From assembly GCF_048403405.1 (NCBI RefSeq), contig NZ_CP183129.1: a stretch of 64,000 nt of DNA, one strand, 5' to 3'. This document shows, piece by piece, positions 1,153 through 20,437 of this stretch. A program made the position numbers and the translations under genes. Below the pieces are notes generated by a model. That model did no database searches. It had not been told where the DNA came from and saw nothing but the letters and a program-made list of their open reading frames with translations. The stretch is from Escherichia coli. Its GTDB lineage: Bacteria; Pseudomonadota; Gammaproteobacteria; Enterobacterales; Enterobacteriaceae. Positions within the stretch are counted from its first letter, which is position 1. Each line of letters opens with the position of its first letter.

Positions 1153-2817
1153 TTAAAACGTTTCCCAGTTCTCCCCGCTATCTGCCACGGCCATTTTACG
1201 CGGCGCAGCTGGCGTCACGGTTTTTACCACAGCCGATGTTTCACGCTGCTGTTGCTGCTGTTGCTGAATCCGGAACACTGCCACAGCTTCGGTCAGGCGA
1301 CTGGCCTGCTCTTCCAGCGCGGCAGCGGCGGCGGCAGATTCTTCCACCAGTGCGGCGTTCTGTTGAGTTACCCGGTCCATCTCAGCAACCGCTAATCCAA
1401 CCTGATCGATACCACGGCTCTGCTCATCAGAAGCAGAAGCAATTTCGCCCATAATGTCCGTCACGCGGGTCACGGCACTGACAATCTCCGCCATTGTTTC
1501 CCCTGCGCTTTCGACCAGCGTAGAGCCAACATCCACTTTCCCCACCGAGTCTTCAATCAGGCTTTTAATTTCACGAGCCGCCTGGGCGCTGCGCTGGGCC
1601 AGATTACGCACTTCTCCCGCGACCACCGCAAAACCGCGCCCTTGCTCACCCGCACGCGCAGCCTCAACCGCCGCGTTCAAAGCCAGAATATTGGTCTGGA
1701 AGGCAATGCCGTCAATTACGCTGATAATATCGGCGATTTTCTGCGAACTGGTGGAGATATCGCGCATAGTCTGCACCACGTTATCTACCACTTTGCCGCC
1801 GCGTTGCGCCGTTTCAGAAGCACTTAACGCCAGATGGCTGGCCTGACGCGCATTCTCGGCGTTCTGTTTCACCGTTGCGGTCAGTTGCTCCATGCTGGCT
1901 GCCGTCTCTTCCAGCGAAGCGGCCTGTTGCTCGGTGCGCGAAGAGAGATCGTTATTGCCGGTGGCGATTTCGCTGGCACCGCTATAAATGGCATTGGCCC
2001 CGTTGCGCACATCACCGACGGTACGCATCAGCTCTCCCTGCATATGGCGCAAACTCTCTGCCAGTTGCCCCATCTCATTAGAGCCATCCACCTCAATCGG
2101 TTTCACCAGATCGCCGCCTGCAATATGACGAATGCTGTCAATCAGGCGATTCATTGGCGCTACCAACGAGGCTTTAATACCGAACCAGACGGCGAAGATG
2201 ACCGCCAGTACGACGATCATCACGCCCACCAGGATCCACATCGCCTGGCTGTAGGAGGCATTATTATCGCTGACGGCGATATCATAGAGCCGATCGTTTT
2301 GCTCCATGTAAGCCACATACTGCTTCTCGAAACCGTCCTGATATCCCTGGGTCGGCTGATCAAAGAACTCGTTGATTTTGCCTGCACCTAACAGTTGGAT
2401 CAGCTCCGCCAGCGCATTGTGATAAATATCGTAATTACGTTTGATCTCTGCCGCTGCGGCGGTGCTCTGACGCGGGTCACGCGGCAACGCTTCGTAATCC
2501 GCCCAGTTTTTTTCCGCCTGTTTCAGCGAAATACTGGCACTCTGCATCAGCTCAGCAACGGTTGAACCGCTACCAATATTATTCTGATCCATCATGTAGC
2601 GGATACCCGCGCGGTTGAGGGTGTTACGCGTCTGCAACAACGCGACCCAGCTGCCATTCAGCGTGGATTGCTGCTGGCGAATGGTTTGTAAAACAGTGAA
2701 ATTTTCTTTGTCATTCTTTAAGGCATTAAAGAACAGACCGCCTGATGTCAGTTGTAAAAGGCCAAAAACGGCCAAAACCAGCAGTAAGCTGGTCACAATT
2801 TTGATACGTTTTAACAT
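1153..2817 (-). CDS. tsr: Methyl-accepting chemotaxis protein I (serine chemoreceptor)
   Basis: 554-aa ORF; N-terminal TM segment, periplasmic ligand domain, HAMP, conserved MCP signalling domain, C-terminal NWETF pentapeptide; recognised as Tsr. Confidence 0.95.
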
Positions 2818-2847
2818 GTTTTCTCTTTCCTGTGGACCGATGCAAGA

Positions 2848-2874
2848 TTTTCGGCCTGGAAAGGAAAAACTTTA
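2848..2874 (-). promoter_or_regulatory. sigma28 (FliA) class III flagellar promoter for tsr
   Basis: Minus strand reads TAAAGTTT-N11-GCCGAAAA, a near-perfect match to the FliA consensus TAAAGTTT-N11-GCCGATAA, about 30 nt upstream of the tsr start. Confidence 0.6.
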
Positions 2875-2935
2875 TGAAAAGGTGTAACCCGCCATCCATG
2901 GAAAAACCAGGCGCTGGTTATCAGATATTAAAAAG

Positions 2936-3382
2936 TTATTCATTATCGCCCGGGATGTCTTCTTGTCGGGAATTACCCAGAGCAATAAATTCCTCTAACA
3001 GATGGGTTAACTGTTGCATTTTCTCGGCAGTAAACTGAGCTTCAATCTGCCGATAGGCCTCTTCAATCTGTGTCTGAGCGCGGTTATACAGCGCCTGCCC
3101 CTCTTTGGTCAGCGAGATATAGAGCTTCCGCTGATCATTGATCGGCTTTAATCGCAACACTAAACCGTCGCGTTCCATCCGCGTAAGGATCCCGGTCAGG
3201 CTTGGGCGCAAAATGCAGGCGCGATACGCCAGATCGTGAAAATCCATTGATGGGCTTTCCGCCAGAATACGCACGATGCGCCACTGTTGCTCAGTCAAAT
3301 TATGCCGTTTAACGATTGGGCGAAAATAACTCATCGCCGCTTCTCGCGCCTGGAGCAACGCAATGGTTAGAGAGTCGTGCAT
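2936..3382 (-). CDS. hpaR: MarR-family repressor of the homoprotocatechuate (hpa meta-cleavage) operon
   Basis: ORF track gives 175 aa; the internal Met (MHDSLTIALLQ...) gives a 148-aa MarR-type winged-helix protein recognised as HpaR; divergent from hpaG. Confidence 0.85.
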   Translation of the reverse strand: MHDSLTIALLQAREAAMSYFRPIVKRHNLTEQQWRIVRILAESPSMDFHDLAYRACILRPSLTGILTRMERDGLVLRLKPINDQRKLYISLTKEGQALYNRAQTQIEEAYRQIEAQFTAEKMQQLTHLLEEFIALGNSRQEDIPGDNE

Positions 3383-3604
3383 TATCTTTCCCCTGAAAAA
3401 TTCAAAATCATTAATATAGAAACAGTTAATCATCACGTTACCGGGACTGCGCTGCCCCTGCAATTCTTCATTTTATCAAAATTGAGCATGTTTTGTTAAC
3501 TTGCTGATATTTAATATTTTATTATCTTTAAATGTAAATAGTTTGTTAATTAGATCACATTTACATCACTTACTTTTGCCAAACTACGCAATCGGGAATA
3601 AAAG

Positions 3605-3628
3605 TAATCATTAACATATTAATGATTA
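3605..3628. promoter_or_regulatory. Perfect 10-bp inverted repeat, candidate HpaR operator at the hpaG promoter
   Basis: TAATCATTAA-cata-TTAATGATTA, 26-49 bp upstream of the hpaG start; related half-sites AATCATTAAT (3406-3415) and TTAATCATCA (3427-3436) sit next to the hpaR start. Confidence 0.5.
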
Positions 3629-3653
3629 AGATGATCGAATCCGAGGAGTGGTA

Positions 3654-4943
3654 ATGAAAGGCACTATCTTCGCCGTAGCGTTGAACCATCGCAGCCAGCT
3701 TGATGCATGGCAGGAAGCGTTCCAGCAATCCCCCTACAAAACCCCGCCTAAAACTGCGGTCTGGTTTATTAAACCGCGCAATACGGTGATTGGTTGCGGT
3801 GAACCGATTCCCTTTCCACAGGGTGAAAAAGTACTGAGCGGTGCGACTGTTGCGCTGATTGTGGGGAAAACGGCGACGAAAGTACGTGAAGAAGATGCGG
3901 CAGAGTACATCGCCGGATATGCGCTGGCTAACGACGTCAGCCTGCCGGAAGAGAGCTTTTACCGCCCGGCAATCAAAGCAAAATGTCGTGATGGATTCTG
4001 CCCCATTGGCGAAACCGTGGCTCCCAGCAATGTCGATAATCTGACTATCTATACCGAGATCAACGGGCGTCCTGCCGATCATTGGAACACCGCCGATTTA
4101 CAACGTAACGCCGCGCAGTTGCTGAGCGCTCTGAGCGAATTTGCCACGCTGAATCCAGGCGATGCCATTCTGCTCGGCACGCCACAGGCGCGCGTGGAAA
4201 TACAGCCAGGCGATCGCGTGCGTGTTCTCGCAGAAGGTTTCCCGCCACTGGAAAATCCGGTAGTGGACGAACGTGAAGTGACCACGCGCAAGAGCTTCCC
4301 AACGCAGCCACACCCGCACGGCACGCTGTTTGCCCTCGGCCTGAACTACGCCGACCACGCCAGCGAACTGGAATTTAAGCCACCGGAAGAACCGCTGGTG
4401 TTCCTGAAAGCGCCGAATACCCTCACTGGCGATAACCAGACCTCCGTGCGCCCGAACAATATTGAATACATGCACTACGAAGCGGAGCTGGTGGTAGTTA
4501 TTGGCAAGCAGGCGCGTAACGTCAGCGAAGCCGATGCCATGGATTATGTCGCGGGCTACACCGTGTGTAACGACTACGCCATTCGCGACTATCTGGAAAA
4601 CTACTACCGCCCTAACCTGCGGGTAAAAAGCCGCGACGGACTGACGCCGATGCTTTCAACCATCGTGCCGAAAGAGGCGATCCCGGACCCGCATAATCTG
4701 ACCCTTCGCACCTTCGTCAACGGCGAGTTACGCCAGCAAGGCACCACCGCCGATCTGATCTTCAGCGTGCCCTTCCTGATCGCCTACTTAAGCGAATTTA
4801 TGACCCTGAATCCGGGCGACATGATCGCCACCGGCACACCAAAAGGCTTATCTGACGTGGTGCCTGGCGATGAAGTAGTGGTGGAAGTAGAAGGCGTGGG
4901 CCGCCTGGTGAACCGAATTGTGAGTGAGGAAACAGCGAAATGA
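3654..4943 (+). CDS. hpaG: Bifunctional 5-carboxymethyl-2-oxo-hex-3-ene-1,7-dioate decarboxylase / 2-hydroxyhepta-2,4-diene-1,7-dioate isomerase
   Basis: 429 aa from ATG 3654 with GAGGAG RBS at 3644-3649; duplicated FAH-family domain; recognised as HpaG. Confidence 0.9.
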   Translation: MKGTIFAVALNHRSQLDAWQEAFQQSPYKTPPKTAVWFIKPRNTVIGCGEPIPFPQGEKVLSGATVALIVGKTATKVREEDAAEYIAGYALANDVSLPEESFYRPAIKAKCRDGFCPIGETVAPSNVDNLTIYTEINGRPADHWNTADLQRNAAQLLSALSEFATLNPGDAILLGTPQARVEIQPGDRVRVLAEGFPPLENPVVDEREVTTRKSFPTQPHPHGTLFALGLNYADHASELEFKPPEEPLVFLKAPNTLTGDNQTSVRPNNIEYMHYEAELVVVIGKQARNVSEADAMDYVAGYTVCNDYAIRDYLENYYRPNLRVKSRDGLTPMLSTIVPKEAIPDPHNLTLRTFVNGELRQQGTTADLIFSVPFLIAYLSEFMTLNPGDMIATGTPKGLSDVVPGDEVVVEVEGVGRLVNRIVSEETAK

Positions 4944-6406
4944 AAAAAGTAAATCATTGGATCAACGGCAAAAATGTTGCAGGTAACGACTACTTCCAGA
5001 CCACCAATCCGGCAACGGGTGAAGTGCTGGCAGATGTGGCCTCCGGCGGTGAAGCGGAGATCAATCAGGCGGTAGCGGCAGCGAAAGAGGCGTTCCCGAA
5101 ATGGGCCAATCTGCCGATGAAAGAGCGTGCGCGCCTGATGCGCCGTCTGGGCGATCTGATCGACCAGAACGTGCCTGAGATCGCCGCGATGGAAACCGCG
5201 GACACGGGCCTGCCGATCCATCAGACCAAAAATGTATTGATCCCACGCGCTTCTCACAACTTTGAATTTTTCGCGGAAGTCTGCCAGCAGATGAACGGCA
5301 AGACCTATCCGGTTGACGACAAGATGCTCAACTACACGCTGGTGCAACCGGTAGGCGTTTGTGCGCTGGTATCGCCGTGGAACGTGCCGTTTATGACCGC
5401 CACATGGAAGGTCGCGCCGTGTCTGGCGCTGGGCAATACCGCGGTGTTGAAAATGTCGGAACTCTCCCCGCTGACCGCTGACCGCCTGGGTGAGCTGGCG
5501 CTGGAAGCCGGTATTCCGGCGGGCGTGCTGAACGTGGTACAGGGCTACGGCGCAACCGCAGGCGATGCGCTGGTTCGTCATCATGACGTACGTGCCGTGT
5601 CGTTCACCGGCGGTACGGCCACCGGGCGCAACATCATGAAAAACGCCGGGCTGAAAAAATACTCCATGGAACTGGGCGGTAAATCGCCGGTGCTGATTTT
5701 TGAAGATGCCGATATTGAACGCGCGCTGGACGCTGCCCTGTTCACCATCTTCTCGATCAACGGCGAGCGCTGCACCGCCGGTTCGCGCATCTTTATTCAG
5801 CAAAGCATCTACCCGGAATTCGTTAAACGCTTTGCCGAACGCGCCAACCGTCTGCGCGTGGGCGATCCGAACGATCCGAATACCCAGGTTGGGGCGCTTA
5901 TCAGCCAGCAACACTGGGAAAAAGTCTCCGGCTATATTCGTCTCGGCATTGAAGAAGGCGCAACCCTGCTAGCGGGCGGTCCGGATAAACCGTCCGACCT
6001 GCCTGCGCACCTGAAAGGCGGCAACTTCCTGCGCCCAACGGTGCTGGCTGACGTTGATAACCGTATGCGCGTCGCCCAGGAAGAGATTTTCGGGCCGGTC
6101 GCCTGTCTGCTGCCGTTTAAAGACGAAGCTGAAGGTCTGCGCCTGGCAAATGACGTGGAGTATGGCCTCGCGTCGTACATCTGGACGCAGGATGTCAGCA
6201 AAGTGTTACGCCTGGCGCGTGGCATTGAAGCAGGCATGGTGTTCGTCAACACCCAGAACGTGCGCGACCTGCGCCAGCCGTTTGGCGGCGTAAAAGCCTC
6301 CGGCACCGGGCGTGAAGGCGGTGAGTACAGCTTCGAAGTGTTCGCGGAAATGAAGAACGTCTGCATTTCCATGGGCGACCATCCAATTCCGAAATGGGGA
6401 GTCTGA
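4940..6406 (+). CDS. hpaE: 5-carboxymethyl-2-hydroxymuconate semialdehyde dehydrogenase (NAD-dependent aldehyde dehydrogenase)
   Basis: 488 aa; ATGA start/stop overlap with hpaG; aldehyde dehydrogenase family with catalytic Cys region (FSINGERCTAGSR). Confidence 0.9.
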   Translation: MKKVNHWINGKNVAGNDYFQTTNPATGEVLADVASGGEAEINQAVAAAKEAFPKWANLPMKERARLMRRLGDLIDQNVPEIAAMETADTGLPIHQTKNVLIPRASHNFEFFAEVCQQMNGKTYPVDDKMLNYTLVQPVGVCALVSPWNVPFMTATWKVAPCLALGNTAVLKMSELSPLTADRLGELALEAGIPAGVLNVVQGYGATAGDALVRHHDVRAVSFTGGTATGRNIMKNAGLKKYSMELGGKSPVLIFEDADIERALDAALFTIFSINGERCTAGSRIFIQQSIYPEFVKRFAERANRLRVGDPNDPNTQVGALISQQHWEKVSGYIRLGIEEGATLLAGGPDKPSDLPAHLKGGNFLRPTVLADVDNRMRVAQEEIFGPVACLLPFKDEAEGLRLANDVEYGLASYIWTQDVSKVLRLARGIEAGMVFVNTQNVRDLRQPFGGVKASGTGREGGEYSFEVFAEMKNVCISMGDHPIPKWGV

Positions 6407-6407
6407 T

Positions 6408-7259
6408 ATGGGTAAGTTAGCGTTAGCCGCCAAAATCACGCACGTACCGTCGATGTATCTCTCTGAACTGCCAGGGAAAAACCACGGTTGCCGCCAGGGT
6501 GCGATCGACGGGCATAAAGAGATCAGCAAGCGTTGCCGGGAAATGGGCGTCGATACCATTATCGTTTTCGATACTCACTGGCTGGTCAACAGTGCTTATC
6601 ACATCAACTGTGCAGACCATTTTGAAGGCGTCTACACCAGCAACGAGCTGCCGCATTTTATTCGTGACATGACCTACAACTACGAGGGCAACCCGGAGTT
6701 GGGGCAGCTTATTGCCGATGAAGCCTTAAAACTCGGCGTGCGGGCAAAAGCGCACAACATTCCCAGCCTGAAACTGGAATACGGCACGCTGGTGCCAATG
6801 CGCTACATGAATGAAGACAAGCACTTCAAAGTGGTCTCCATTTCGGCTTTCTGCACGGTTCACGATTTTGCCGACAGCCGCAAGCTTGGCGAAGCGATTT
6901 TGAAAGCAATCGAACAGTACGACGGCACCGTGGCGGTCCTTGCCAGCGGTTCGTTATCGCACCGCTTTATTGACGATCAGCGTGCGGAAGAAGGGATGAA
7001 CAGCTACACCCGCGAGTTCGACCGCCAGATGGACGAGCGCGTGGTGAAGCTGTGGCGCGAAGGCCAGTTCAAAGAGTTCTGCAATATGCTGCCGGAGTAC
7101 GCCGACTACTGCTACGGCGAAGGCAATATGCACGACACGGTGATGCTGCTGGGGATGCTCGGCTGGGATAAATACGACGGCAAGGTGGAGTTTATCACCG
7201 AGCTGTTCCCAAGCTCCGGTACTGGTCAGGTTAACGCTGTTTTCCCGCTTCCCGCGTAA
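6408..7259 (+). CDS. hpaD: 3,4-dihydroxyphenylacetate (homoprotocatechuate) 2,3-dioxygenase
   Basis: 283 aa; starts 2 nt after the hpaE stop; recognised as HpaD extradiol dioxygenase. Confidence 0.9.
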   Translation: MGKLALAAKITHVPSMYLSELPGKNHGCRQGAIDGHKEISKRCREMGVDTIIVFDTHWLVNSAYHINCADHFEGVYTSNELPHFIRDMTYNYEGNPELGQLIADEALKLGVRAKAHNIPSLKLEYGTLVPMRYMNEDKHFKVVSISAFCTVHDFADSRKLGEAILKAIEQYDGTVAVLASGSLSHRFIDDQRAEEGMNSYTREFDRQMDERVVKLWREGQFKEFCNMLPEYADYCYGEGNMHDTVMLLGMLGWDKYDGKVEFITELFPSSGTGQVNAVFPLPA

Positions 7260-7268
7260 GGACGTTTT

Positions 7269-7649
7269 ATGCCGCACTTTATCGTTGAATGTACTGAAAA
7301 TATTCGTGAAGAAGCCCGCTTACCTGAGCTGTTTGCCAGTGTTAACACTGCACTGGCGGCGACGGGGATTTTTCCGCTTGGGGGAATACGTAGCCGGGCG
7401 CACTGGATCGATACCTGGCAAATGGCTGATGGCAAGCACGATTACGCCTTTGTGCATATGACGCTAAAAATCGGCAGCGGGCGCAGTCTGGAAAGCCGTC
7501 AGGAAGTGGGCGAAATGGTGTTTGATCTGATTAAAACGCACTTCGCCTCACTGATGGAGAGCCGTTACCTGGCGCTTTCATTTGAGATTGCAGAGCTGCA
7601 CCCGACGTTGAATTTCAAACAGAACAACGTACACGCGTTGTTTAAATAA
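7269..7649 (+). CDS. hpaF: 5-carboxymethyl-2-hydroxymuconate delta-isomerase
   Basis: 126 aa beginning [12 protein letters not shown]; recognised as HpaF (CHM isomerase). Confidence 0.9.
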
Positions 7650-7658
7650 ATTTGTACC

Positions 7659-7690
7659 AGCTTCCAGGCCGGATGATAAGGCGCAGCCGC
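7659..7690. repeat. REP-like palindromic element
   Basis: gccggatgataaggcgcagccgcatccggc imperfect palindrome in the hpaF-hpaH spacer. Confidence 0.5.
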
Positions 7691-7716
7691 ATCCGGCAAT
7701 GCCACAGGATATCGCC

Positions 7717-8520
7717 ATGTTCGATAAACACACCCACACCCTGATCGCCCAGCGTCTGGATCAGGCAGAAAAACAGCGCGAACAGATCCGCGCGATCTCG
7801 CTGGATTACCCGGAGATCACCGTCGAAGATGCCTACGCCGTACAGCGCGAATGGGTCCGCCTGAAAATTGCCGAAGGCCGTACGCTGAAAGGCCACAAAA
7901 TCGGCCTGACCTCGAAAGCGATGCAGGCCAGCTCACAAATCAGCGAACCGGATTACGGCGCGCTGCTGGACGACATGTTCTTCCACGATGGCAGCGATAT
8001 CCCGACCGATCGCTTTATCGTGCCGCGCATTGAAGTGGAGCTGGCTTTCGTGCTGGCAAAACCGCTGCGTGGGCCAAACTGCACGCTGTTCGACGTTTAC
8101 AACGCCACGGACTATGTGATCCCGGCGCTGGAGCTGATCGACGCTCGCTGCCACAACATCGATCCGGAAACCCAGCGCCCGCGTAAAGTGTTCGACACCA
8201 TTTCTGATAACGCCGCCAATGCCGGGGTGATCCTCGGTGGTCGTCCCATTAAGCCCGATGAGTTGGATCTGCGTTGGATCTCCGCCCTGATGTATCGTAA
8301 TGGCGTGATTGAAGAAACTGGCGTCGCCGCTGGCGTGCTGAATCACCCGGCAAACGGCGTGGCCTGGCTGGCGAACAAACTCGCACCGTATGACGTACAA
8401 CTGGAAGCCGGGCAAATCATTCTCGGCGGTTCGTTTACCCGCCCGGTTCCGGCGCGTAAGGGCGACACCTTCCACGTCGATTACGGCAACATGGGCTCCA
8501 TTAGCTGCCGCTTTGTTTAA
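7717..8520 (+). CDS. hpaH: 2-oxo-hept-3-ene-1,7-dioate hydratase
   Basis: 267 aa from the second in-frame ATG ([12 protein letters not shown]...); the ORF track starts 6 codons earlier at 7699. Confidence 0.85.
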
Positions 8521-8530
8521 GGAGAGAACG

Positions 8531-9319
8531 ATGGAAAACAGTTTTAAAGCGGCGCTGAAAGCAGGCCGCCCGCAGATCGGATTATGGCTGGGGCTAAGTA
8601 GCAGCTACAGCGCAGAGTTACTGGCCGGAGCAGGATTCGACTGGTTGTTGATCGACGGTGAGCACGCGCCGAATAACGTGCAAACCGTGCTCACCCAGCT
8701 ACAGGCGATTGCGCCCTACCCCAGCCAGCCGGTAGTACGTCCGTCGTGGAACGATCCGGTGCAAATCAAACAACTGCTGGACGTCGGCACACAAACCTTA
8801 CTGGTGCCGATGGTTCAAAACGCTGACGAAGCCCGTGAAGCGGTACGCGCCACCCGTTATCCCCCCGCCGGTATTCGCGGTGTGGGCAGTGCGCTGGCCC
8901 GCGCCTCGCGCTGGAATCGCATTCCTGATTACCTGCAAAAAGCCAACGATCAAATGTGCGTACTGGTGCAGATCGAAACTCGTGAGGCAATGAAGAACCT
9001 ACCGCAGATTCTGGACGTGGAAGGGGTAGACGGCGTGTTTATCGGCCCGGCGGATCTGAGCGCCGATATGGGTTATGCCGGTAATCCGCAGCACCCGGAA
9101 GTGCAGGCCGCCATTGAACAGGCGATCGTGCAAATCCGTGAAGCGGGCAAAGCTCCGGGGATCCTGATCGCCAATGAGCAACTGGCAAAACGCTACCTGG
9201 AACTGGGCGCGCTATTTGTCGCCGTCGGCGTTGACACCACCCTGCTCGCCCGCGCCGCCGAAGCGCTGGCAGCACGGTTTGGCGCGCAGGCCACGACCGT
9301 TAAGCCCGGCGTGTATTAA
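8531..9319 (+). CDS. hpaI: 2,4-dihydroxyhept-2-ene-1,7-dioate aldolase
   Basis: 262 aa from ATG 8531 with GGAGAG RBS at 8521-8526; the ORF-track start at 8390 is an upstream extension overlapping hpaH. Confidence 0.9.
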
Positions 9320-9395
9320 TGCTGAATGCGCTTATCCGGCTTACAGCAGTACCAAACTGTAGCCGGATAAGGCGTTTACGCCGCATCCGCCATAA
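9320..9395. repeat. REP (repetitive extragenic palindrome) copies
   Basis: tgcgcttatccggcttacagc...gtagccggataaggcgtttacgccgcatccg, the canonical E. coli REP/PU consensus, between hpaI and hpaX. Confidence 0.55.
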
Positions 9396-9436
9396 ATCTT
9401 GTCGTACCCTACAAAAATCCCATTAGAGGAAGAAAA

Positions 9437-10813
9437 ATGAGCGACACCTCACCTGCCATACCGGAAAGTATCGATCCGGCAAATCAGCATAAAACGCTGA
9501 CTGCCGGACAACAGGCGGTTATTAAGAAGCTATTTCGCCGCCTGATCGTCTTTCTGTTCGTGCTGTTTATCTTCTCGTTCCTTGATCGCATCAACATCGG
9601 CTTTGCCGGGCTAACGATGGGACGCGACCTCGGTCTGAGCGCCACCATGTTTGGCCTCGCCACCACCCTGTTCTATGCCGCTTATGTCATCTTCGGCATT
9701 CCCAGCAACATTATGCTGAGTATTGTCGGTGCGCGGCGCTGGATCGCCACCATCATGGTGCTCTGGGGCATCGCCTCTACGGCCACCATGTTTGCCACTG
9801 GCCCCACCAGCTTATACGTACTGCGTATACTGGTTGGCATTACCGAAGCCGGCTTTCTGCCTGGCATTCTGCTGTATTTAACCTTCTGGTTTCCGGCCTA
9901 TTTCCGCGCCCGTGCCAACGCCTTGTTTATGGTAGCAATGCCGGTAACGACAGCGCTGGGATCGATCGTTTCCGGCTACATTTTGTCGCTGGATGGCGTA
10001 ATGGCATTAAAAGGCTGGCAGTGGCTGTTTTTGCTGGAAGGCTTCCCGTCGGTATTACTCGGCGTCATGGTGTGGTTCTGGCTTGATGACTCACCGGACA
10101 AAGCTAAGTGGCTGACGAAAGAAGACAAAAAATGCCTGCAAGAGATGATGGATAACGATCGTCTGACGCTGGTTCAGCCAGAGGGAGCCATCAGTCACCA
10201 CGCCATGCAACAACGCAGCATGTGGCGGGAGATCTTCACTCCGGTGGTGATGATGTATACCCTGGCGTATTTCTGCCTGACCAACACACTTAGTGCAATC
10301 AGCATCTGGACACCGCAGATCCTACAAAGCTTTAATCAGGGCAGCAGTAATATCACCATCGGCCTGCTGGCCGCCGTACCGCAGATTTGTACCATTCTCG
10401 GGATGATCTACTGGAGCCGTCACTCAGATCGCCGCCAGGAACGAAGGCATCACACCGCCCTTCCTTATTTGTTCGCTGCCGCTGGTTGGTTACTGGCTTC
10501 GGCAACTGATCACAACATGATCCAGATGCTGGGGATCATTATGGCTTCGACCGGATCATTCAGCGCAATGGCGATTTTCTGGACAACACCGGATCAGTCC
10601 ATCAGCCTGCGGGCACGAGCGATCGGTATTGCGGTGATCAACGCCACTGGCAACATTGGTTCAGCGTTAAGTCCGTTTATGATCGGCTGGTTGAAAGATC
10701 TGACCGGCAGCTTTAACAGTGGATTGTGGTTTGTTGCCGCGCTGCTGGTGATTGGTGCGGGGATTATCTGGGCAATTCCAATGCAGTCCTCCCGTCCGCG
10801 AGCGACCCCGTAA
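9437..10813 (+). CDS. hpaX: 4-hydroxyphenylacetate permease (MFS)
   Basis: 458 aa, 12-TM MFS-type protein inside the hpa cluster. Confidence 0.9.
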   Translation: MSDTSPAIPESIDPANQHKTLTAGQQAVIKKLFRRLIVFLFVLFIFSFLDRINIGFAGLTMGRDLGLSATMFGLATTLFYAAYVIFGIPSNIMLSIVGARRWIATIMVLWGIASTATMFATGPTSLYVLRILVGITEAGFLPGILLYLTFWFPAYFRARANALFMVAMPVTTALGSIVSGYILSLDGVMALKGWQWLFLLEGFPSVLLGVMVWFWLDDSPDKAKWLTKEDKKCLQEMMDNDRLTLVQPEGAISHHAMQQRSMWREIFTPVVMMYTLAYFCLTNTLSAISIWTPQILQSFNQGSSNITIGLLAAVPQICTILGMIYWSRHSDRRQERRHHTALPYLFAAAGWLLASATDHNMIQMLGIIMASTGSFSAMAIFWTTPDQSISLRARAIGIAVINATGNIGSALSPFMIGWLKDLTGSFNSGLWFVAALLVIGAGIIWAIPMQSSRPRATP

Positions 10814-10822
10814 GGAACGACG

Positions 10823-11713
10823 ATGTGTGACCGTCAGATTGCCAATATTGATATCAGCAAAGAGTACGATGAAAGCCTGGGCACGGACGATGTGCATTAT
10901 CAGTCCTTCGCCCGCATGGCGGCATTTTTTGGCCGCCATATGCTGCCACATCGCCACGAACAGTACTTTCAGATGCATTTCCTCAATAGCGGACAGATTG
11001 AGCTACAGCTTGACGATCATCGCTACTCGGTGGAAGCGCCCCTGTTTGTCCTGACGCCGCCGTCAGTACCTCATGCGTTTATTACGGAGTCTGACGCCGA
11101 CGGTCATGTGTTGACGGTACGGGAAGATCTGATCTGGCCCCTGCTGGAAGTTCTTTATCCGGGCACTCGGGAAACCTTCGGCCTGCCGGGGATTTGCCTG
11201 TCACTGGCAGATAAACCCGACGAACTGGCAGCGCTGGAACACTATTGGCAACTGATAGAGCGGGAATCGGTGGAACAACTGCCTGGACGGGAACACACCC
11301 TGACGTTACTGGCACAGGCAGTATTCACCCTACTGCTGCGTAACGCAAAACTCGACGACCATGCCGCCAGCGGGATGCGCGGAGAATTAAAACTGTTCCA
11401 GCGTTTTAATATGCTGATTGAAAGCCATTTTCATCAGCACTGGACAGTACCGGATTACGCTAACGAACTGCATATCACCGAATCACGTCTCACGGACATC
11501 TGCCGCCGCTTTGCCAACCGTCCGCCAAAACGGTTGATTTTCGACAGGCAGCTGCGAGAAGCCAAGCGGCTGCTGCTGTTTTCTGATAACGCCGTGAACA
11601 ATATTGCCTGGCAACTCGGTTTTAAGGATCCGGCTTATTTTGCGCGCTTTTTTAATCGTTTAGTCGGTTGCTCGCCCAGTGCTTATCGTGCCAAAAAAGT
11701 ACCTGTGACGTGA
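10823..11713 (+). CDS. hpaA: AraC/XylS-family activator of hpaBC
   Basis: 296 aa; C-terminal AraC-type helix-turn-helix (IAWQLGFKDPAYFARFFNRLVGCSPSAYR). Confidence 0.85.
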   Translation: MCDRQIANIDISKEYDESLGTDDVHYQSFARMAAFFGRHMLPHRHEQYFQMHFLNSGQIELQLDDHRYSVEAPLFVLTPPSVPHAFITESDADGHVLTVREDLIWPLLEVLYPGTRETFGLPGICLSLADKPDELAALEHYWQLIERESVEQLPGREHTLTLLAQAVFTLLLRNAKLDDHAASGMRGELKLFQRFNMLIESHFHQHWTVPDYANELHITESRLTDICRRFANRPPKRLIFDRQLREAKRLLLFSDNAVNNIAWQLGFKDPAYFARFFNRLVGCSPSAYRAKKVPVT

Positions 11714-11963
11714 AAATCCCTTAGCCTTAACGGGAAACCAGGCACCACCTGCTATTCCCCTTTCTCCGCCTGGAGCAAGGGGATTTAGTAACGTCAAAAA
11801 TCGCTAAAAGCGACCTCGATCACAAAACCGTACCCGACCTGAAAAGTACCAGCCATTGTCCCAAAAGTGTCTTCCCGTAATCGCCCCTTCAAGCTTCAAT
11901 TGAATAACAAAAACAACACACAAAATTAACAATCGTATTCCGATTAATACTGTAGAGGTCGAC

Positions 11964-13526
11964 ATGAAACCAGAAGATTTCCGCGCCAGTACCCAACGTC
12001 CGTTCACCGGGGAAGAGTATCTGAAAAGCCTGCAGGATGGTCGCGAGATCTATATCTATGGCGAGCGAGTGAAAGACGTCACCACTCATCCGGCATTTCG
12101 TAATGCGGCAGCGTCTGTTGCCCAACTGTACGACGCGCTGCACAAACCGGAGATGCAGGACTCTCTGTGTTGGAACACCGACACCGGCAGCGGCGGCTAT
12201 ACCCATAAATTCTTCCGCGTGGCGAAAAGTGCCGACGACCTGCGCCAGCAACGCGACGCCATCGCTGAGTGGTCACGCCTGAGCTATGGCTGGATGGGCC
12301 GTACCCCAGACTACAAAGCCGCTTTCGGTTGCGCACTGGGCGCGAATCCGGGCTTTTACGGTCAGTTCGAGCAGAACGCCCGTAACTGGTACACCCGTAT
12401 TCAGGAAACTGGCCTCTACTTTAACCACGCGATTGTTAACCCACCGATCGATCGTCATTTGCCGACCGATAAAGTGAAAGACGTTTACATCAAACTGGAA
12501 AAAGAGACTGACGCCGGGATTATCGTCAGCGGTGCGAAAGTGGTTGCCACCAACTCGGCGCTGACTCACTACAACATGATTGGCTTCGGCTCGGCACAAG
12601 TGATGGGCGAAAACCCGGACTTCGCACTGATGTTCGTTGCGCCAATGGATGCCGATGGCGTGAAATTAATCTCCCGCGCCTCTTATGAGATGGTCGCGGG
12701 TGCTACCGGCTCCCCGTACGACTACCCGCTCTCCAGCCGCTTCGATGAGAACGATGCGATTCTGGTGATGGATAACGTGCTGATCCCATGGGAAAACGTG
12801 CTGATCTACCGCGATTTTGATCGCTGCCGTCGCTGGACGATGGAAGGCGGTTTCGCCCGTATGTATCCGCTGCAAGCCTGTGTACGCCTGGCAGTGAAAC
12901 TCGACTTCATTACGGCACTGCTGAAAAAATCACTCGAATGTACCGGCACCCTGGAGTTCCGTGGTGTGCAGGCCGATCTCGGTGAAGTGGTGGCGTGGCG
13001 CAACACCTTCTGGGCATTGAGTGACTCGATGTGTTCAGAAGCGACACCATGGGTCAACGGTGCTTATTTACCGGATCATGCCGCACTGCAAACCTATCGC
13101 GTACTGGCACCAATGGCCTACGCGAAGATCAAAAACATTATCGAACGCAACGTTACCAGTGGCCTGATCTATCTCCCTTCCAGTGCCCGTGACCTGAACA
13201 ATCCGCAGATCGACCAGTATCTGGCGAAGTATGTGCGCGGTTCGAATGGTATGGATCACGTCCAGCGCATCAAGATCCTCAAACTGATGTGGGATGCCAT
13301 TGGCAGCGAGTTTGGTGGTCGTCACGAGCTGTATGAAATCAACTACTCCGGTAGCCAGGATGAGATTCGCCTGCAGTGTCTGCGCCAGGCACAAAGCTCC
13401 GGCAATATGGACAAGATGATGGCGATGGTTGATCGCTGCCTGTCGGAATACGACCAGAACGGCTGGACTGTGCCGCACCTGCACAACAACGACGATATCA
13501 ACATGCTGGATAAGCTGCTGAAATAA
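11964..13526 (+). CDS. hpaB: 4-hydroxyphenylacetate 3-monooxygenase, oxygenase component
   Basis: 520 aa beginning MKPEDFRASTQRPFTGEEYLKSL; recognised as HpaB. Confidence 0.95.
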   Translation: MKPEDFRASTQRPFTGEEYLKSLQDGREIYIYGERVKDVTTHPAFRNAAASVAQLYDALHKPEMQDSLCWNTDTGSGGYTHKFFRVAKSADDLRQQRDAIAEWSRLSYGWMGRTPDYKAAFGCALGANPGFYGQFEQNARNWYTRIQETGLYFNHAIVNPPIDRHLPTDKVKDVYIKLEKETDAGIIVSGAKVVATNSALTHYNMIGFGSAQVMGENPDFALMFVAPMDADGVKLISRASYEMVAGATGSPYDYPLSSRFDENDAILVMDNVLIPWENVLIYRDFDRCRRWTMEGGFARMYPLQACVRLAVKLDFITALLKKSLECTGTLEFRGVQADLGEVVAWRNTFWALSDSMCSEATPWVNGAYLPDHAALQTYRVLAPMAYAKIKNIIERNVTSGLIYLPSSARDLNNPQIDQYLAKYVRGSNGMDHVQRIKILKLMWDAIGSEFGGRHELYEINYSGSQDEIRLQCLRQAQSSGNMDKMMAMVDRCLSEYDQNGWTVPHLHNNDDINMLDKLLK

Positions 13527-13543
13527 CGCAGCAGGAGGTTAAG

Positions 13544-14056
13544 ATGCAATTAGATGAACAACGCCTGCGCTTTCGTGACGCGATGGCCAGCCTGTCGGCA
13601 GCGGTAAATATTATCACCACCGAGGGCGACGCCGGACAATGCGGGATTACGGCAACGGCCGTCTGCTCGGTCACGGATACACCACCATCGCTGATGGTGT
13701 GCATTAACGCCAACAGTGCGATGAACCCGGTTTTTCAGGGCAACGGCAAGTTGTGCGTCAACGTCCTCAACCATGAGCAGGAACTGATGGCACGCCACTT
13801 CGCGGGCATGACGGGCATGGCGATGGAAGAGCGTTTTAGCCTCTCATGCTGGCAAAAAGGTCCGCTGGCGCAGCCGGTGCTGAAAGGTTCGCTGGCCAGT
13901 CTTGAAGGTGAGATCCGCGATGTGCAGGCAATTGGCACACATCTGGTGTATCTGGTGGAGATTAAAAACATCATCCTCAGTGCAGAAGGTCACGGACTTA
14001 TCTACTTTAAACGCCGTTTCCATCCGGTGATGCTGGAAATGGAAGCTGCGATTTAA
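13544..14056 (+). CDS. hpaC: 4-hydroxyphenylacetate 3-monooxygenase, NAD(P)H-flavin reductase component
   Basis: 170 aa flavin reductase directly downstream of hpaB. Confidence 0.9.
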   Translation: MQLDEQRLRFRDAMASLSAAVNIITTEGDAGQCGITATAVCSVTDTPPSLMVCINANSAMNPVFQGNGKLCVNVLNHEQELMARHFAGMTGMAMEERFSLSCWQKGPLAQPVLKGSLASLEGEIRDVQAIGTHLVYLVEIKNIILSAEGHGLIYFKRRFHPVMLEMEAAI

Positions 14057-14062
14057 GCTCCA

Positions 14063-14097
14063 GCCCCTTCACGCATTCGTCGAAGGGGCATTTTTAT
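14063..14097 (+). terminator. Rho-independent terminator after hpaC
   Basis: Stem gcccctTC / GAaggggc with a 11-nt loop, followed by TTTTTATT. Confidence 0.6.
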
Positions 14098-14141
14098 TGT
14101 GATCTCAATCACATATCCACCCGATGAATAATTCTTGCCCA

Positions 14142-14170
14142 ACCGCTCACCGCCATTCCTGACCGCTTAC
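14142..14170 (+). promoter_or_regulatory. Direct repeat ACCGCTCA-N13-ACCGCTTA, candidate BtsR (YehT) response-regulator site upstream of btsT
   Basis: Two copies of the ACC(G/A)CT(C/T)A motif with a 13-bp spacer, about 280 bp upstream of the btsT start; matches the LytTR-type BtsR site as I recall it. Confidence 0.5.
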
Positions 14171-14448
14171 GTCCCTAAAATAACCACTCAGTTATTTACC
14201 TTACTTTACGCGCGCGTAACTCTGGCAACATCACTGCAGGATAGCGGTCAATTTACCTCCTCAAACGCAACGCAAACCTAGAACGGCTTCGGCCTATGAT
14301 TAACAAATTACTCTATGGATTTTGGTTTGCAGGAAGGCAGCAAGTGAGTGAATCCCCGGGAGCTTACAACAGTAAGTGACAGGGGTGAACGAACGCAGCT
14401 GCCGCACCTGTAAGCCAAAAGACGACGAGTAAAATGCCAGGTTTTACT

Positions 14449-16599
14449 ATGGATACGAAAAAACTATTCAAGCACATACCCTGGGTGATTCTCGGAATCA
14501 TCGGTGCATTCTGCCTCGCGGTAGTTGCATTACGTCGGGGGGAGCACGTCAGCGCCCTGTGGATCGTGGTCGCCTCTGTGTCGGTGTATCTGGTGGCGTA
14601 TCGCTACTACAGTCTGTACATCGCCCAGAAGGTGATGAAACTCGACCCCACGCGCGCGACGCCTGCGGTTATTAACAACGACGGTCTGAACTACGTTCCG
14701 ACCAACCGTTACGTGTTGTTTGGTCACCACTTCGCCGCTATCGCCGGTGCTGGTCCGCTGGTCGGTCCGGTTCTCGCCGCACAGATGGGCTACCTGCCTG
14801 GCACGCTGTGGCTGCTGGCGGGGGTAGTGCTGGCCGGTGCGGTACAGGACTTTATGGTGCTGTTTATCTCCTCTCGCCGTAACGGCGCATCTCTCGGTGA
14901 GATGATCAAAGAAGAGATGGGACCAGTACCGGGGACTATCGCGCTGTTTGGCTGTTTCTTAATCATGATCATCATCCTCGCCGTTCTGGCGCTGATTGTG
15001 GTTAAAGCCCTGGCCGAAAGTCCGTGGGGTGTCTTCACCGTTTGCTCAACCGTACCAATTGCGCTGTTTATGGGTATCTACATGCGCTTTATCCGTCCGG
15101 GGCGTGTGGGTGAAGTCTCTGTCATTGGTATCGTGCTGCTGGTTGCCTCTATCTACTTCGGTGGCGTGATTGCTCACGATCCGTACTGGGGTCCGGCACT
15201 GACCTTTAAAGACACCACCATTACCTTCGCGCTGATTGGCTATGCGTTTGTTTCCGCGCTGCTGCCGGTGTGGCTGATCCTCGCACCACGCGACTATCTG
15301 GCAACCTTCCTGAAAATCGGCGTTATCGTCGGCCTGGCGCTGGGTATCGTGGTGCTGAACCCGGAACTGAAAATGCCTGCGATGACCCAGTACATTGACG
15401 GTACTGGCCCGCTGTGGAAAGGCGCTCTGTTCCCGTTCCTGTTCATCACCATCGCCTGTGGTGCGGTATCTGGCTTCCACGCACTGATCTCTTCCGGTAC
15501 GACGCCGAAACTGCTGGCTAACGAAACCGACGCGCGTTTCATTGGCTACGGCGCAATGCTGATGGAGTCCTTCGTGGCGATTATGGCGCTGGTTGCTGCG
15601 TCCATCATCGAACCGGGTCTTTACTTCGCGATGAACACCCCGCCTGCTGGCCTTGGCATCACCATGCCTAACCTGCATGAAATGGGTGGCGAGAACGCGC
15701 CGATCATCATGGCGCAGCTGAAAGACGTTACCGCACACGCGGCAGCGACCGTCAGCTCCTGGGGCTTCGTGATTTCGCCAGAGCAGATCCTGCAAACCGC
15801 GAAAGACATTGGTGAGCCTTCTGTCCTGAACCGTGCAGGTGGTGCGCCGACGCTGGCGGTAGGTATCGCTCACGTGTTCCACAAAGTGCTGCCGATGGCT
15901 GACATGGGCTTCTGGTATCACTTCGGTATTCTGTTCGAAGCCCTGTTCATCCTGACCGCGCTGGATGCGGGTACTCGTTCTGGCCGCTTTATGCTGCAAG
16001 ACCTGCTGGGTAACTTCATCCCGTTCCTGAAAAAAACCGACTCTCTGGTTGCTGGTATCATCGGTACTGCGGGCTGTGTGGGTCTGTGGGGCTACCTGCT
16101 GTATCAGGGCGTGGTCGATCCGCTGGGCGGCGTTAAGAGCCTGTGGCCGCTGTTCGGTATCTCCAACCAGATGCTGGCAGCCGTGGCGCTGGTACTGGGT
16201 ACCGTTGTGCTGATTAAGATGAAGCGCACCCAATACATCTGGGTAACTGTTGTTCCGGCTGTATGGCTGCTTATCTGCACCACCTGGGCGCTGGGTCTGA
16301 AACTGTTCAGTACCAACCCGCAGATGGAAGGCTTCTTCTACATGGCAAGCCAGTACAAAGAGAAGATTGCTAACGGTACTGACCTGACGGCGCAGCAGAT
16401 TGCCAACATGAACCACATCGTTGTGAACAACTACACCAACGCAGGCCTGAGTATTCTGTTCCTGATTGTGGTGTACAGCATCATCTTCTACGGTTTCAAA
16501 ACTTGGCTTGCGGTGCGTAACAGCGACAAACGTACTGACAAAGAAACACCGTACGTTCCAATCCCGGAAGGCGGCGTGAAGATCTCTTCGCACCACTAA
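14449..16599 (+). CDS. btsT: CstA-family pyruvate/H+ symporter (carbon starvation protein A paralogue)
   Basis: 716 aa from ATG 14449 (MDTKKLFKHIPWVILG...); the ORF track begins 5 codons earlier; polytopic membrane protein recognised as YjiY/BtsT. Confidence 0.9.
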   Translation: MDTKKLFKHIPWVILGIIGAFCLAVVALRRGEHVSALWIVVASVSVYLVAYRYYSLYIAQKVMKLDPTRATPAVINNDGLNYVPTNRYVLFGHHFAAIAGAGPLVGPVLAAQMGYLPGTLWLLAGVVLAGAVQDFMVLFISSRRNGASLGEMIKEEMGPVPGTIALFGCFLIMIIILAVLALIVVKALAESPWGVFTVCSTVPIALFMGIYMRFIRPGRVGEVSVIGIVLLVASIYFGGVIAHDPYWGPALTFKDTTITFALIGYAFVSALLPVWLILAPRDYLATFLKIGVIVGLALGIVVLNPELKMPAMTQYIDGTGPLWKGALFPFLFITIACGAVSGFHALISSGTTPKLLANETDARFIGYGAMLMESFVAIMALVAASIIEPGLYFAMNTPPAGLGITMPNLHEMGGENAPIIMAQLKDVTAHAAATVSSWGFVISPEQILQTAKDIGEPSVLNRAGGAPTLAVGIAHVFHKVLPMADMGFWYHFGILFEALFILTALDAGTRSGRFMLQDLLGNFIPFLKKTDSLVAGIIGTAGCVGLWGYLLYQGVVDPLGGVKSLWPLFGISNQMLAAVALVLGTVVLIKMKRTQYIWVTVVPAVWLLICTTWALGLKLFSTNPQMEGFFYMASQYKEKIANGTDLTAQQIANMNHIVVNNYTNAGLSILFLIVVYSIIFYGFKTWLAVRNSDKRTDKETPYVPIPEGGVKISSHH

Positions 16600-17896: not shown

Positions 17897-20437
17897 TTAT
17901 CTCTGAACGTGCAACACTTCCTGCGACTCCTTATGCGCCTCCACATCCTGCTTCGTTAACCAGAGCGACTTACGGCCAAAATTTTCGTACATTTTCAGCT
18001 GATCTTCATAGTGCTTATCAACTGTTCCATCGGGAGCAATAAACCCACTCTGACCGGGTGCGACCACATCCCAGGCAAGCACAGGACGATCGCTTGTCGT
18101 TGGTGAGAAAACAATCATATCGTTTTCTGTTCCACGGTTTTGATACTCCGCCTGATGACGCGTTTCTTCCGCTGCGGCCTGCGGTACACCAAAGAAATTA
18201 TTTGCCCGGAACGTTAAGGCCATTGCAGGTGTTTTCCAGTTACTCACATTATTGCCATAGCGTTTGGAAAGAGTCTCCCAGGTATCTTCCAGCGCAGCCA
18301 ACACAACCTCCTGCTGTGGTTTCCCAGCAAACAGATCAACCGCCTGTGGGATTGGTGATTTGTCTCCCTGCACCGCCTCATACAAAATTTTTGCTCCAAC
18401 ACTTATATTCAGCGAACCAGTTGGGCCGTCCTGGGTTGTTTCGTAGCCACTGGCGCTGTACCACTTATCAAATGGCATAGGTACGGCAGCCACTACGGTA
18501 CGCTTCAACATACTGGTCAGCCAAACGTTCAGGATGGCAGAGCCTGGCTGCTGCCAGGTTTTACCATCATCATTAAGCAAATTGATGCCATCCCAACGTG
18601 TTAATGTTTCTACCAACTGACGACGCGGATCGCTCTGTGTCAAACCAGATGTCGCTGCTTGCAGAGTAGGTAAAAAAAGCCTCAGGTTAAGATCCTGACG
18701 ACTGGTTTGGCGAATAACATCCCATGCCTGATCAGCAGTTAAGCGTGGCTTTTGCTCAAGCAGTCGGTCGATCTCCGTAACGCGATCTGCACCACCCCAC
18801 AAAAAGGCAAACAGATCTGAAGCGGGATAATCTTTTTGGGGAGAATTGTTCCAGTTAGCAATATATCCCGACTGGGGGTTATACACCTTAGGGTTCATTT
18901 CAAAAGGCAATAGCCCTTTCCAGTCCCATTTTCCCGTACCAGGAACGGGTAATCGCGGATCATGGCCTGATTGACGATCTGGATAAGCACCAGTATGAAC
19001 ATAACCAATATTGCCGTTTACATCAGCATAGTACCAGTTGATGGTCAGTGCTTGTTTCGCTGCCTGCTGTGTCCACTCCTGCCAATTTTTGGCCTTCATC
19101 TGATGAGTCCAGGCCAGCAAAGACGCCACCTCTTTACCATCCCATGCGCGGGATTTAGCGTAAGCCGTTTGTGTCGTCTGGTCAGTTTGGAGAATGTTGC
19201 CATGCACCGTACGCCAGACAGTAAAGGTCTCTGCCTGACCATTTTTCACCGTAATGGTTTCCTCACGGCTTAACATTTTCACCCACTTACCATTATGCAA
19301 GTAGTAGCCTGGTTTCTCTGCCGACAGCCGTTCAGCAAAAATATCGACATCATCGCCGAAACCTGCCGTTGATCCCCAGGAAATCACACCATTATGACCA
19401 AAAACCAGCCCAGGATAGGCAAATGGTGTATTGCCAGTGACATCATAACCAGCACCGTGCAGACCAATACCATAAGTATACGCAGGCGCATACCAGCCAA
19501 ACTGCGGACCATTTACCATGATTGCTTTCGCATCCTGGGCTTTGCTTTTGCCGATCACCCACATATTGCTGGTCGTTGGATACCCCGCCAGACCATTGGC
19601 ACCACCCTGTGCAAATTGTGCAGCAATAGTTTCCCGGTTCTTCCCTGCTGTTAACGCCAGCAGTGCGCCATCCGCCCCTTTTGCTGGTCGGTCAAGCATT
19701 GGTGCAGGTAAATCGTAGCGTGGCAACAGAGCTGCTGTTTGCGAGTTTTGCTGATTAAATTTAAGTGGGTAGTTACTCTCTTGTACGGCAATAGTGGTTG
19801 GCGCTGATGGGTTTACCAGCCATTTCAACTGATTAAATACCGCCATGCCTTGTGATACACCATATTTATCTTTTAAAGCCGTTAGCAGTGCCAGATTATC
19901 AATTTCGCTAGTGCTATCAGAGAAGCGGTTTGCCATGGTGCCCACAAATATCATCGCGACATCAAACGGTTCCCAGCGCTTAGGAGTAAAGCCAAATGTA
20001 TTAAACTGTTTTGGTAAGAGCGTCTCTGGATTGGTATTTACCTTATCAATCCAGGCATTCATTCCATCAGCGTAGCCTTGCAGAATGGACATATCCTCTG
20101 GGGAAAGGGCAGCAATTTGCGCCCGGATAGCATCCGGCCAGTAGTTACGACGGATATCTTTATCAAATTTCACAAAATCTTTGCCAAGCACTTCCGCGAC
20201 AGTCCCTTGAGTACTGCGACGTGCCATTTCCATCTGAAAAAGGCGATCTTGTGCTACTACATAGCCATAGCCATAAAATAGGTGCCATGTATCATTGGCA
20301 TAAATATGCGGCATGCCGTATTCATCGCGAACAATCTTTATCTCACTTGACGACTGCTCAGCCAGTGCAGGTAAGCTCCAATAATACATCAGGGAAGCAG
20401 TAACACAGTTCACGATCATACGATTTCTATTTTTCAT
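17897..20437 (-). CDS. pac: Penicillin G acylase precursor (Ntn hydrolase; signal peptide, alpha subunit, spacer, beta subunit)
   Basis: 846 aa; signal peptide; beta-subunit N-terminal nucleophile motif SNMWVIGKS; recognised as E. coli penicillin amidase. Confidence 0.9.

Follow-up and report, generated by a model that had tools for sequence, protein, structure and literature searches.

An intact hpa cluster between tsr and btsT of Escherichia coli reads best as an ancestral resident of the site and carries one of two hpaF alleles

The hpa cluster for catabolism of 4-hydroxyphenylacetate (4-HPA), an aromatic acid of the gut, has featured in textbooks and biotechnology since the 1990s, as have its absence from Escherichia coli K-12 and the HpaBC hydroxylase that it encodes. 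In E. coli W (ATCC 11105/9637), the cluster is organized as hpaRGEDFHIXABC (GenBank Z37980; Prieto et al. 1996, as cited in PMC7180172), and strains B, C, and W grow on 3-hydroxyphenylacetate (3-HPA) and 4-HPA, whereas K-12 does not (PMC7201708, PMC7180172). The hpc genes of E. coli C (hpcR, ECBDGH) specify the orthologous meta-cleavage pathway. Here, we analyzed a stretch of 64,000 nucleotides (nt) from E. coli contig NZ_CP183129.1 (hereafter, the window), in which an 11-gene hpa cluster occupies positions 2936-14056 between the core genes tsr and btsT (yjiY). Taken as a whole, our analysis makes it very probable that this cluster represents an intact, working chromosomal hpa pathway, which is ancestral at the tsr-btsT site rather than mobile, and which has been lost or replaced in K-12-like lineages. 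The cluster itself is already known, and a dimorphism of hpaF is its sole mildly unexpected feature.

Positions 2818-14433 of the window are 100% identical to E. coli TUM14771 (NZ_CP128875.1), and gene starts were taken from the Prokaryotic Genome Annotation Pipeline (PGAP) annotation of that record. The open reading frame (ORF) map and this annotation gave the gene order hpaR (divergent), hpaGEDFHI, hpaX, hpaA, and hpaBC. A first-pass annotation of the same DNA had described 11 intact genes in this order between tsr and btsT, and ORFs, translation, and hidden Markov model matches all agree with that description. More specifically, all 11 proteins yielded full-length matches to their own NCBIfam equivalog models with scores above the curated cut-offs, and direct translation of the 11 frames revealed neither internal stops nor any of the frameshifts that the earlier description had named as evidence against it. 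From HpaR through HpaC, the protein lengths are those of the references (i.e., 148, 429, 488, 283, 126, 267, 262, 458, 296, 520, and 170 amino acids [aa]). The reported ATGA overlap between the hpaG stop and the hpaE start codon is present at 4940-4943, whereas the hpaE-hpaD and hpaD-hpaF spacers, given earlier as 2 and 10 bp, measure 1 and 9 nt, respectively; the hpaB-hpaC spacer is 17 nt. Solved E. coli structures are matched end to end by HpaB, HpaG, HpaI, HpaH, and HpaF. Likewise, the two-component flavin monooxygenase attributed to HpaBC is borne out by the TIGR02310 and PRK15486 matches and by the identity of both proteins to those of W: HpaB is an HpaB-2-type oxygenase (520 aa), and a separate small NADH:flavin reductase is encoded directly downstream. 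HpaB carries Arg379, which is required for use of 3-HPA (Kim et al. 2020, PMC7201708).

We compared this locus with those of the characterized strains. In E. coli W (LY180), the same 11 genes lie at this chromosomal site in identical order and orientation, and both strains have pac downstream of yjiA. HpaR, HpaE, HpaD, HpaA, HpaB, and HpaC have the same protein sequence in W as in the window, and HpaG, HpaH, HpaI, and HpaX differ by 1 to 3 residues; W departs from the window in its hpaF allele and in its longer spacers containing repetitive extragenic palindromic (REP) elements. Alignment with the published W cluster, put forward in the first-pass annotation as a check, showed 97.0-99.3% nt identity for ten genes and only 80.6% nt and 84% aa identity for hpaF, the latter being the allele found in the 4-HPA grower E. 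coli B. E. coli B REL606 and BL21(DE3) resemble the window in site, gene order, and hpaF allele, and their HpaD, HpaA, and HpaC proteins are identical to ours. In contrast, HpaB of REL606 has Cys379 (confirmed in its sequence) and this strain cannot use 3-HPA (PMC7201708), whereas BL21(DE3), like the window, encodes Arg379. After yjiA, the window has pac only, whereas strain B carries the mrr-hsd-mcr immigration control region. As to E. coli C, the structures 1GTT, 2EB4, and 2V5J are matched over their full length by HpaG, HpaH, and HpaI of the window, but HpcD of strain C (1OTG) is a W-type isomerase, unlike HpaF of the window. Of the three strains said to carry the cluster, W (LY180) and B (REL606) are therefore confirmed by sequence at this very site, and C is a carrier according to the literature (PMC7201708, PMC7180172).

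The distribution of the cluster was assessed in 5426 complete E. coli genomes, about 38% of which carry it. At least four states of the tsr-btsT site exist in this species, namely, the 11-gene hpa cluster (at least 80% of the segment; 2019/5426), a 12-gene variant with an extra metallo-beta-lactamase (MBL)-fold hydrolase gene and foreign hpaX and hpaA (49/5426), a K-12-type filler (2752/5426), and an O157:H7-type 543-bp hypothetical ORF (180 aa; locus L006, 5351-5893) that was found mostly in O157:H7 (363/5426). The hpaF gene is present in 2071 of the genomes. Absence of the cluster from K-12 at the tsr-yjiY junction, as claimed, was confirmed in the K-12 derivative MGY, in which the tsr-btsT intergenic region spans 377 bp and holds no hpa DNA. 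We considered whether the K-12 filler (133 bp) or the O157-type insert might be a degenerate hpa remnant or occur in other genera, and discarded both ideas, as neither sequence is similar to hpa or to the loci of other genera. The 12-gene variant (e.g., SCU-105) occupies the same site and is 97-99% identical to the window in hpaR-hpaI and hpaBC. It differs in its MBL-fold hydrolase gene, which is added between hpaA and hpaB (L007, 10537-13757) and has no counterpart in the window, and in hpaX and hpaA, which are only 69% and 67% identical to ours at the nt level. In Salmonella arizonae (L016) and Salmonella diarizonae (L020), too, hpaA is followed by an MBL gene; in the former, hpaBC is inverted and lies upstream of hpaR.

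As relatives, we used the best 80 HpaF-encoding loci obtained from species-representative genomes by an HpaF-alignment scan, and compared the window proteins with them by tblastn. Among these 80 loci, tsr lies beside hpaR in 13, btsT directly follows hpaC in 21, and both arrangements occur together in 9, with partial synteny in 25. Full tsr-hpa-btsT synteny was detected in Enterobacter, Leclercia, Lelliottia, Citrobacter, Pseudocitrobacter, and a divergent Escherichia; with Klebsiella, Raoultella, and Pseudenterobacter added, full and partial synteny together span eight other genera. Because the same arrangement is found in other genera, the cluster is best read as ancestral at tsr-btsT, its arrival predating the split of Escherichia from Enterobacter and Citrobacter, and the K-12 state as derived. 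Loss of hpa has already been proposed in the literature (quoted in Kim et al., PMC7201708). On our reading, K-12-like lineages have lost the cluster and now carry ~85-133 bp of unrelated filler in its place. The tsr-btsT site, together with the neighboring immigration control region, is prone to recombination, which explains both the patchy distribution of the cluster and its mosaic hpaF allele.

Several points weigh against an ancestral, working cluster. Since the K-12 filler has no similarity to hpa sequence, it gives no evidence of a simple deletion scar, and the K-12 state may have arisen by recombinational import of other DNA instead of by a clean deletion. The GC content of the cluster (54.4%) exceeds that of the rest of the window (48.7%), yet tsr and btsT themselves reach 53-58%. 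Only one non-K-12 Escherichia is represented among the best 80 loci, and other Escherichia species may be devoid of the cluster, which would require several losses. As to function, we infer expression and growth on 4-HPA in this particular strain from sequence, and a generic promoter scan performed at or below chance (7 sites versus 8.2 expected).

Synteny also bears on the alternative that the ancestors of hpa-positive strains acquired the cluster horizontally, as a genomic island entering between tsr and btsT, so that the K-12-type empty site would be the original one. The order tsr-hpaR...hpaC-btsT in five other genera and a divergent Escherichia largely refutes this scenario, which we regard as very unlikely even though it would accommodate the patchy presence of the cluster (2019 of 5426 genomes with at least 80% of it versus 2752 with K-12-type filler), its elevated GC content, and its sharp left junction. 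The hallmarks of insertion were not found: a comparison of the two junctions yielded no common direct k-mer of 8 or more and a single inverted 8-mer, as expected by chance; no tRNA was detected in window positions 1-22000; and segment 2879-14142 contains no ORFs of at least 80 aa apart from those overlapping hpa genes, and hence no integrase, transposase, or other mobility gene. Exchange of hpa DNA between genera is evident (in Pseudocitrobacter, the meta operon shares 87-97.5% identity with E. coli, versus 79-87% for the flanks) and the hpaX-hpaA-MBL segment of the 12-gene variant is foreign, both of which would suit acquisition, but divergence from W is much the same in the hpa genes (0.7-3%) as in the flanking core genes (1-2%), and both the cluster and its immediate surroundings contain REP and enterobacterial repetitive intergenic consensus (ERIC) elements of the kind usual in native intergenic DNA of E. 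coli. Thus, the term "island" used in the first-pass annotation is a loose label, misleading insofar as mobility genes, tRNA, and junction repeats are missing and the site is occupied in other genera; "variably present ancestral cluster" is the better one.

The three Pseudocitrobacter species (L029, L032, and L034) merit separate mention. Their hpaG-hpaI genes are 87-97.5% identical to those of E. coli at the nt level, compared with 79-87% for tsr, hpaR, hpaX, hpaA, hpaC, and btsT, a pattern that suggests inter-genus recombination of the meta-cleavage operon, which as a whole looks to be of Escherichia origin in Pseudocitrobacter. The same loci harbor ~3.4 kb of extra DNA between tsr and hpaR.

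The difference between the window and W in hpaF amounts to 74 nt and 20 aa. Sliding-window identity placed it in a hyperdivergent patch of ~385 bp (~7292-7675), which extends from just past the conserved MPHFIVEC codons into the REP-containing spacer. Of the 2071 genomes with hpaF, 1083 belong to the window type (at least 95% identity) and 987 to a type that is 80-90% identical, a ratio of ~52:48, and 1 is intermediate. Window HpaF, which begins with MPHFIVEC and so retains an N-terminal Met-Pro, can be aligned over the entire 125 residues of 1OTG at 238.7 bits, whereas HpaF of W scores 273.6 bits against the same E. coli C HpcD structure, with 1 mismatch in 125 residues. Its length of ~125 aa, N-terminal catalytic proline, and 1OTG homology mark it as a 5-carboxymethyl-2-hydroxymuconate (CHM) isomerase, the catalysis being predicted. 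Compared with REL606, the window gene shows 4 nt differences (99.0% nt identity) and 2 aa differences, and the window-type allele is presumably functional, because E. coli B, which has the same allele, grows on 4-HPA (PMC7201708). At the nt level, window-type hpaF is 96.3% identical to that of the divergent Escherichia locus (L079), and W-type hpaF is 93-98% identical to that of Pseudocitrobacter; apart from these, no donor for either allele exceeding 84% nt identity was found among the best 80 loci. The literature that we searched contained no earlier description of this dimorphism, which is no proof of novelty. The patch might represent an old, ~50:50 dimorphism, either kept by selection or marking repeated gene conversion between genera, and hence an undescribed balanced polymorphism, but we offer this as a tentative and rather unlikely interpretation.

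According to the model worked out in E. coli W and C, HpaX would import 4-HPA or 3-HPA, and HpaA (AraC family) would sense the substrate and, together with 4-HPA, switch on hpaBC. HpaC would then reduce flavin with NADH, and HpaB, drawing on this reduced flavin and on O2, would convert the substrate by hydroxylation into 3,4-dihydroxyphenylacetate (homoprotocatechuate), which in turn would relieve repression of hpaGEDFHI by HpaR (MarR family). After ring opening by HpaD, the product would be processed by HpaE, HpaF, HpaG, HpaH, and HpaI to pyruvate and succinic semialdehyde. The regulatory logic of HpaA at PBC and of HpaR at Pg is taken from PMC7180172 and PMC4468947. That the cluster is intact on paper yet cryptic or impaired in this strain, owing to the divergent HpaF (20 substitutions and just 84% identity relative to the enzyme of W and C) or to regulatory changes such as the 9 substitutions relative to W in the hpaR-hpaG intergenic region (96.7% identity), is very improbable, given that this hpaF allele occurs in E. 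coli B (with 2 aa differences), a 4-HPA grower (PMC7201708), and in ~52% of hpa-positive genomes, that the W and window alleles differ by 39 synonymous and 20 non-synonymous codons and keep the Met-Pro-His N terminus, consistent with purifying selection, and that the operator palindrome upstream of hpaG is perfect.

This palindrome lies just 5' of hpaG and contains TTAA-N4-TTAA, a motif of HpaR sites in Yersinia that was called similar to E. coli W in the same study (PMC7180172), and it is likely to be the HpaR operator (Table 1). A role for the PBC promoter has been described (PMC4468947); a consensus promoter scan returned nothing specific in its expected place, the hpaA-hpaB intergenic region (11714-11963), and promoter scanning was not used for placing Pg, Pr, PX/PA, or PBC. 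Downstream of hpaC, a hairpin followed by a T-run is likely to act as an intrinsic terminator. Our terminator scan covers loops of up to 8 nt and so does not list this hairpin, whose loop is longer; it performed at or below chance (11 sites versus 12.7 expected). An Rfam scan of window positions 1-21000 at the gathering threshold gave no hits. The hpaF-hpaH and hpaI-hpaX (9320-9436) spacers are shorter than in W (67 versus 110 bp and 117 versus 174 bp, respectively) because they contain fewer REP units.

Alignment of the junctions with those of K-12 (L002), an empty site of the B2 type (L005), and the O157-type site (L006) revealed a sharp left edge at 2878/2879, where the hpa-positive and K-12/B2 haplotypes part 4 nt upstream of the putative tsr sigma-28 promoter, and the O157-type left flank departs a few bases before 2879. 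The promoter was called with the established sigma-28 consensus. At the right edge, BLAST homology to K-12 restarts at 14143, at the direct repeat ACCGCTCA/ACCGCTTA. We take this repeat to represent the BtsR (YehT) boxes of the btsT promoter. Upstream of it, the CRP-like TGTGAT-N6-ATCACA keeps an identical register relative to the ACCGCTCA box in the hpa-positive, K-12/B2, and O157 haplotypes. The DNA between the CRP-like site and this box is heavily diverged, whereas that downstream is 93-99% conserved. Control of yjiY by cAMP-CRP and YehT is on record (PMC5431176). Given the junction positions and the retained CRP-like site, the variable segment exactly fills the gap between two divergent, constrained promoters. 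An ERIC/intergenic repeat unit (IRU)-like dispersed repeat, which has a median of 9 copies per E. coli genome, separates the btsT promoter elements from the ATG of this gene in all three hpa-positive loci aligned (window, W, and SCU-105) and is absent from the K-12, B2, and O157-type sites. This insert lengthens the 5' leader of btsT. The leader is reportedly Csr-controlled.

Table 1. Features of the hpa cluster and its flanks (window coordinates)
Feature	Position	Strand	Basis
tsr, serine chemoreceptor, left flanking core gene	1153-2817	-	NCBIfam PRK15041, 1225 bits, full length; annotated tsr in identical record
Putative sigma-28 promoter of tsr, TAAAGTTT-N11-GCCGAAAA	2848-2874	-	Read from sequence
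Segment polymorphic versus K-12	2879-14142		BLAST and MAFFT
hpaR, MarR-family repressor of meta-cleavage operon	2936-3382	-	TIGR02337 HpaR, 200 bits (cut-off 121)
Candidate HpaR operator, perfect 10-bp inverted repeat TAATCATTAA-CATA-TTAATGATTA	3605-3628		Repeat search
hpaG, bifunctional 5-oxopent-3-ene-1,2,5-tricarboxylate (OPET) decarboxylase / 2-hydroxyhepta-2,4-diene-1,7-dioate (HHDD) isomerase	3654-4943	+	PRK15203, 974 bits; PDB 1GTT full-length
hpaE, 5-carboxymethyl-2-hydroxymuconate semialdehyde (CHMS) dehydrogenase	4940-6406	+	TIGR02299, 739 bits
hpaD, homoprotocatechuate 2,3-dioxygenase	6408-7259	+	TIGR02298, 550 bits
hpaF, CHM isomerase (tautomerase superfamily), divergent B-type allele	7269-7649	+	PRK15031, 263 bits
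Second REP-like unit, hpaF-hpaH spacer	7650-7716		Sequence reading
hpaH, 2-oxo-hept-4-ene-1,7-dioate hydratase	7717-8520	+	TIGR02312, 464 bits; PDB 2EB4 full-length
hpaI, 4-hydroxy-2-oxoheptanedioate aldolase	8531-9319	+	TIGR02311, 433 bits; PDB 2V5J, 4B5X
REP/bacterial interspersed mosaic element (BIME)-like palindrome, hpaI-hpaX spacer	9331-9371		Inverted repeat CTTATCCGGCT/AGCCGGATAAG
hpaX, major facilitator superfamily (MFS) 4-HPA permease	9437-10813	+	TIGR02332, 894 bits
hpaA, AraC-family activator of hpaBC	10823-11713	+	TIGR02297, 390 bits
hpaA-hpaB intergenic region, expected place of HpaA-dependent PBC promoter	11714-11963	+	98% identical to W
hpaB, oxygenase component of 4-HPA 3-monooxygenase	11964-13526	+	TIGR02310, 1110 bits; PDB 6QYH, 6EB0 over 520 aa
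hpaC, NADH:flavin reductase component	13544-14056	+	PRK15486, 386 bits
Predicted intrinsic terminator 3' of hpaC, GC-rich GCCCCTTC-N11-GAAGGGGC then T-run ATTTTTATT	14063-14098	+	Read from sequence
CRP-like site TGTGATCTCAATCACA upstream of btsT	14098-14113	+	Sequence and haplotype alignment
Direct repeat ACCGCTCAC / ACCGCTTAC, putative BtsR (YehT) boxes of btsT promoter	14142-14150 and 14162-14170	+	Repeat search
ERIC/IRU-like dispersed repeat, btsT promoter elements to btsT ATG	14304-14433		Haplotype alignment
btsT (yjiY), pyruvate/H+ symporter, right flanking core gene	14449-16599	+	Annotation of identical record

Both flanking genes are close to those of K-12 (98.3% nt identity for tsr and 98.4% for btsT). 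The tsr gene is 1665 bp long (554 aa) in the window, W, SCU-105, and the B2-type and O157-type genomes, whereas K-12 and REL606 have a tsr of 1656 bp (551 aa), reflecting a 9-bp in-frame indel. Beyond btsT, pac (penicillin G acylase) is located at 17897-20437 (minus strand) between yjiA and yjiS, with the same protein accession as in the W lineage and 100% DNA identity over the 1537 nt compared. It fills the place of the mrr-hsdRMS-mcrBC immigration control region of K-12 and B, so that the strain lacks a type I restriction-modification or Mcr system at that locus. Farther along the window (~63284-63850), a sialate O-acetylesterase gene beside nanM/nanC is a truncated pseudogene according to the annotation of the identical record.

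The value of these results is corrective, in that the hpa cluster is best regarded as ancestral at tsr-btsT, with loss in some lineages, and not as an acquired island. In addition, the W and C reference HpcD/HpaF stands for only about half of natural hpa-positive E. coli, and the allele split is relevant to pathway models or engineering built on one reference sequence. If the hpaF dimorphism is indeed a balanced one, selection on two isomerase forms might reflect tautomer or substrate preference, or flux.

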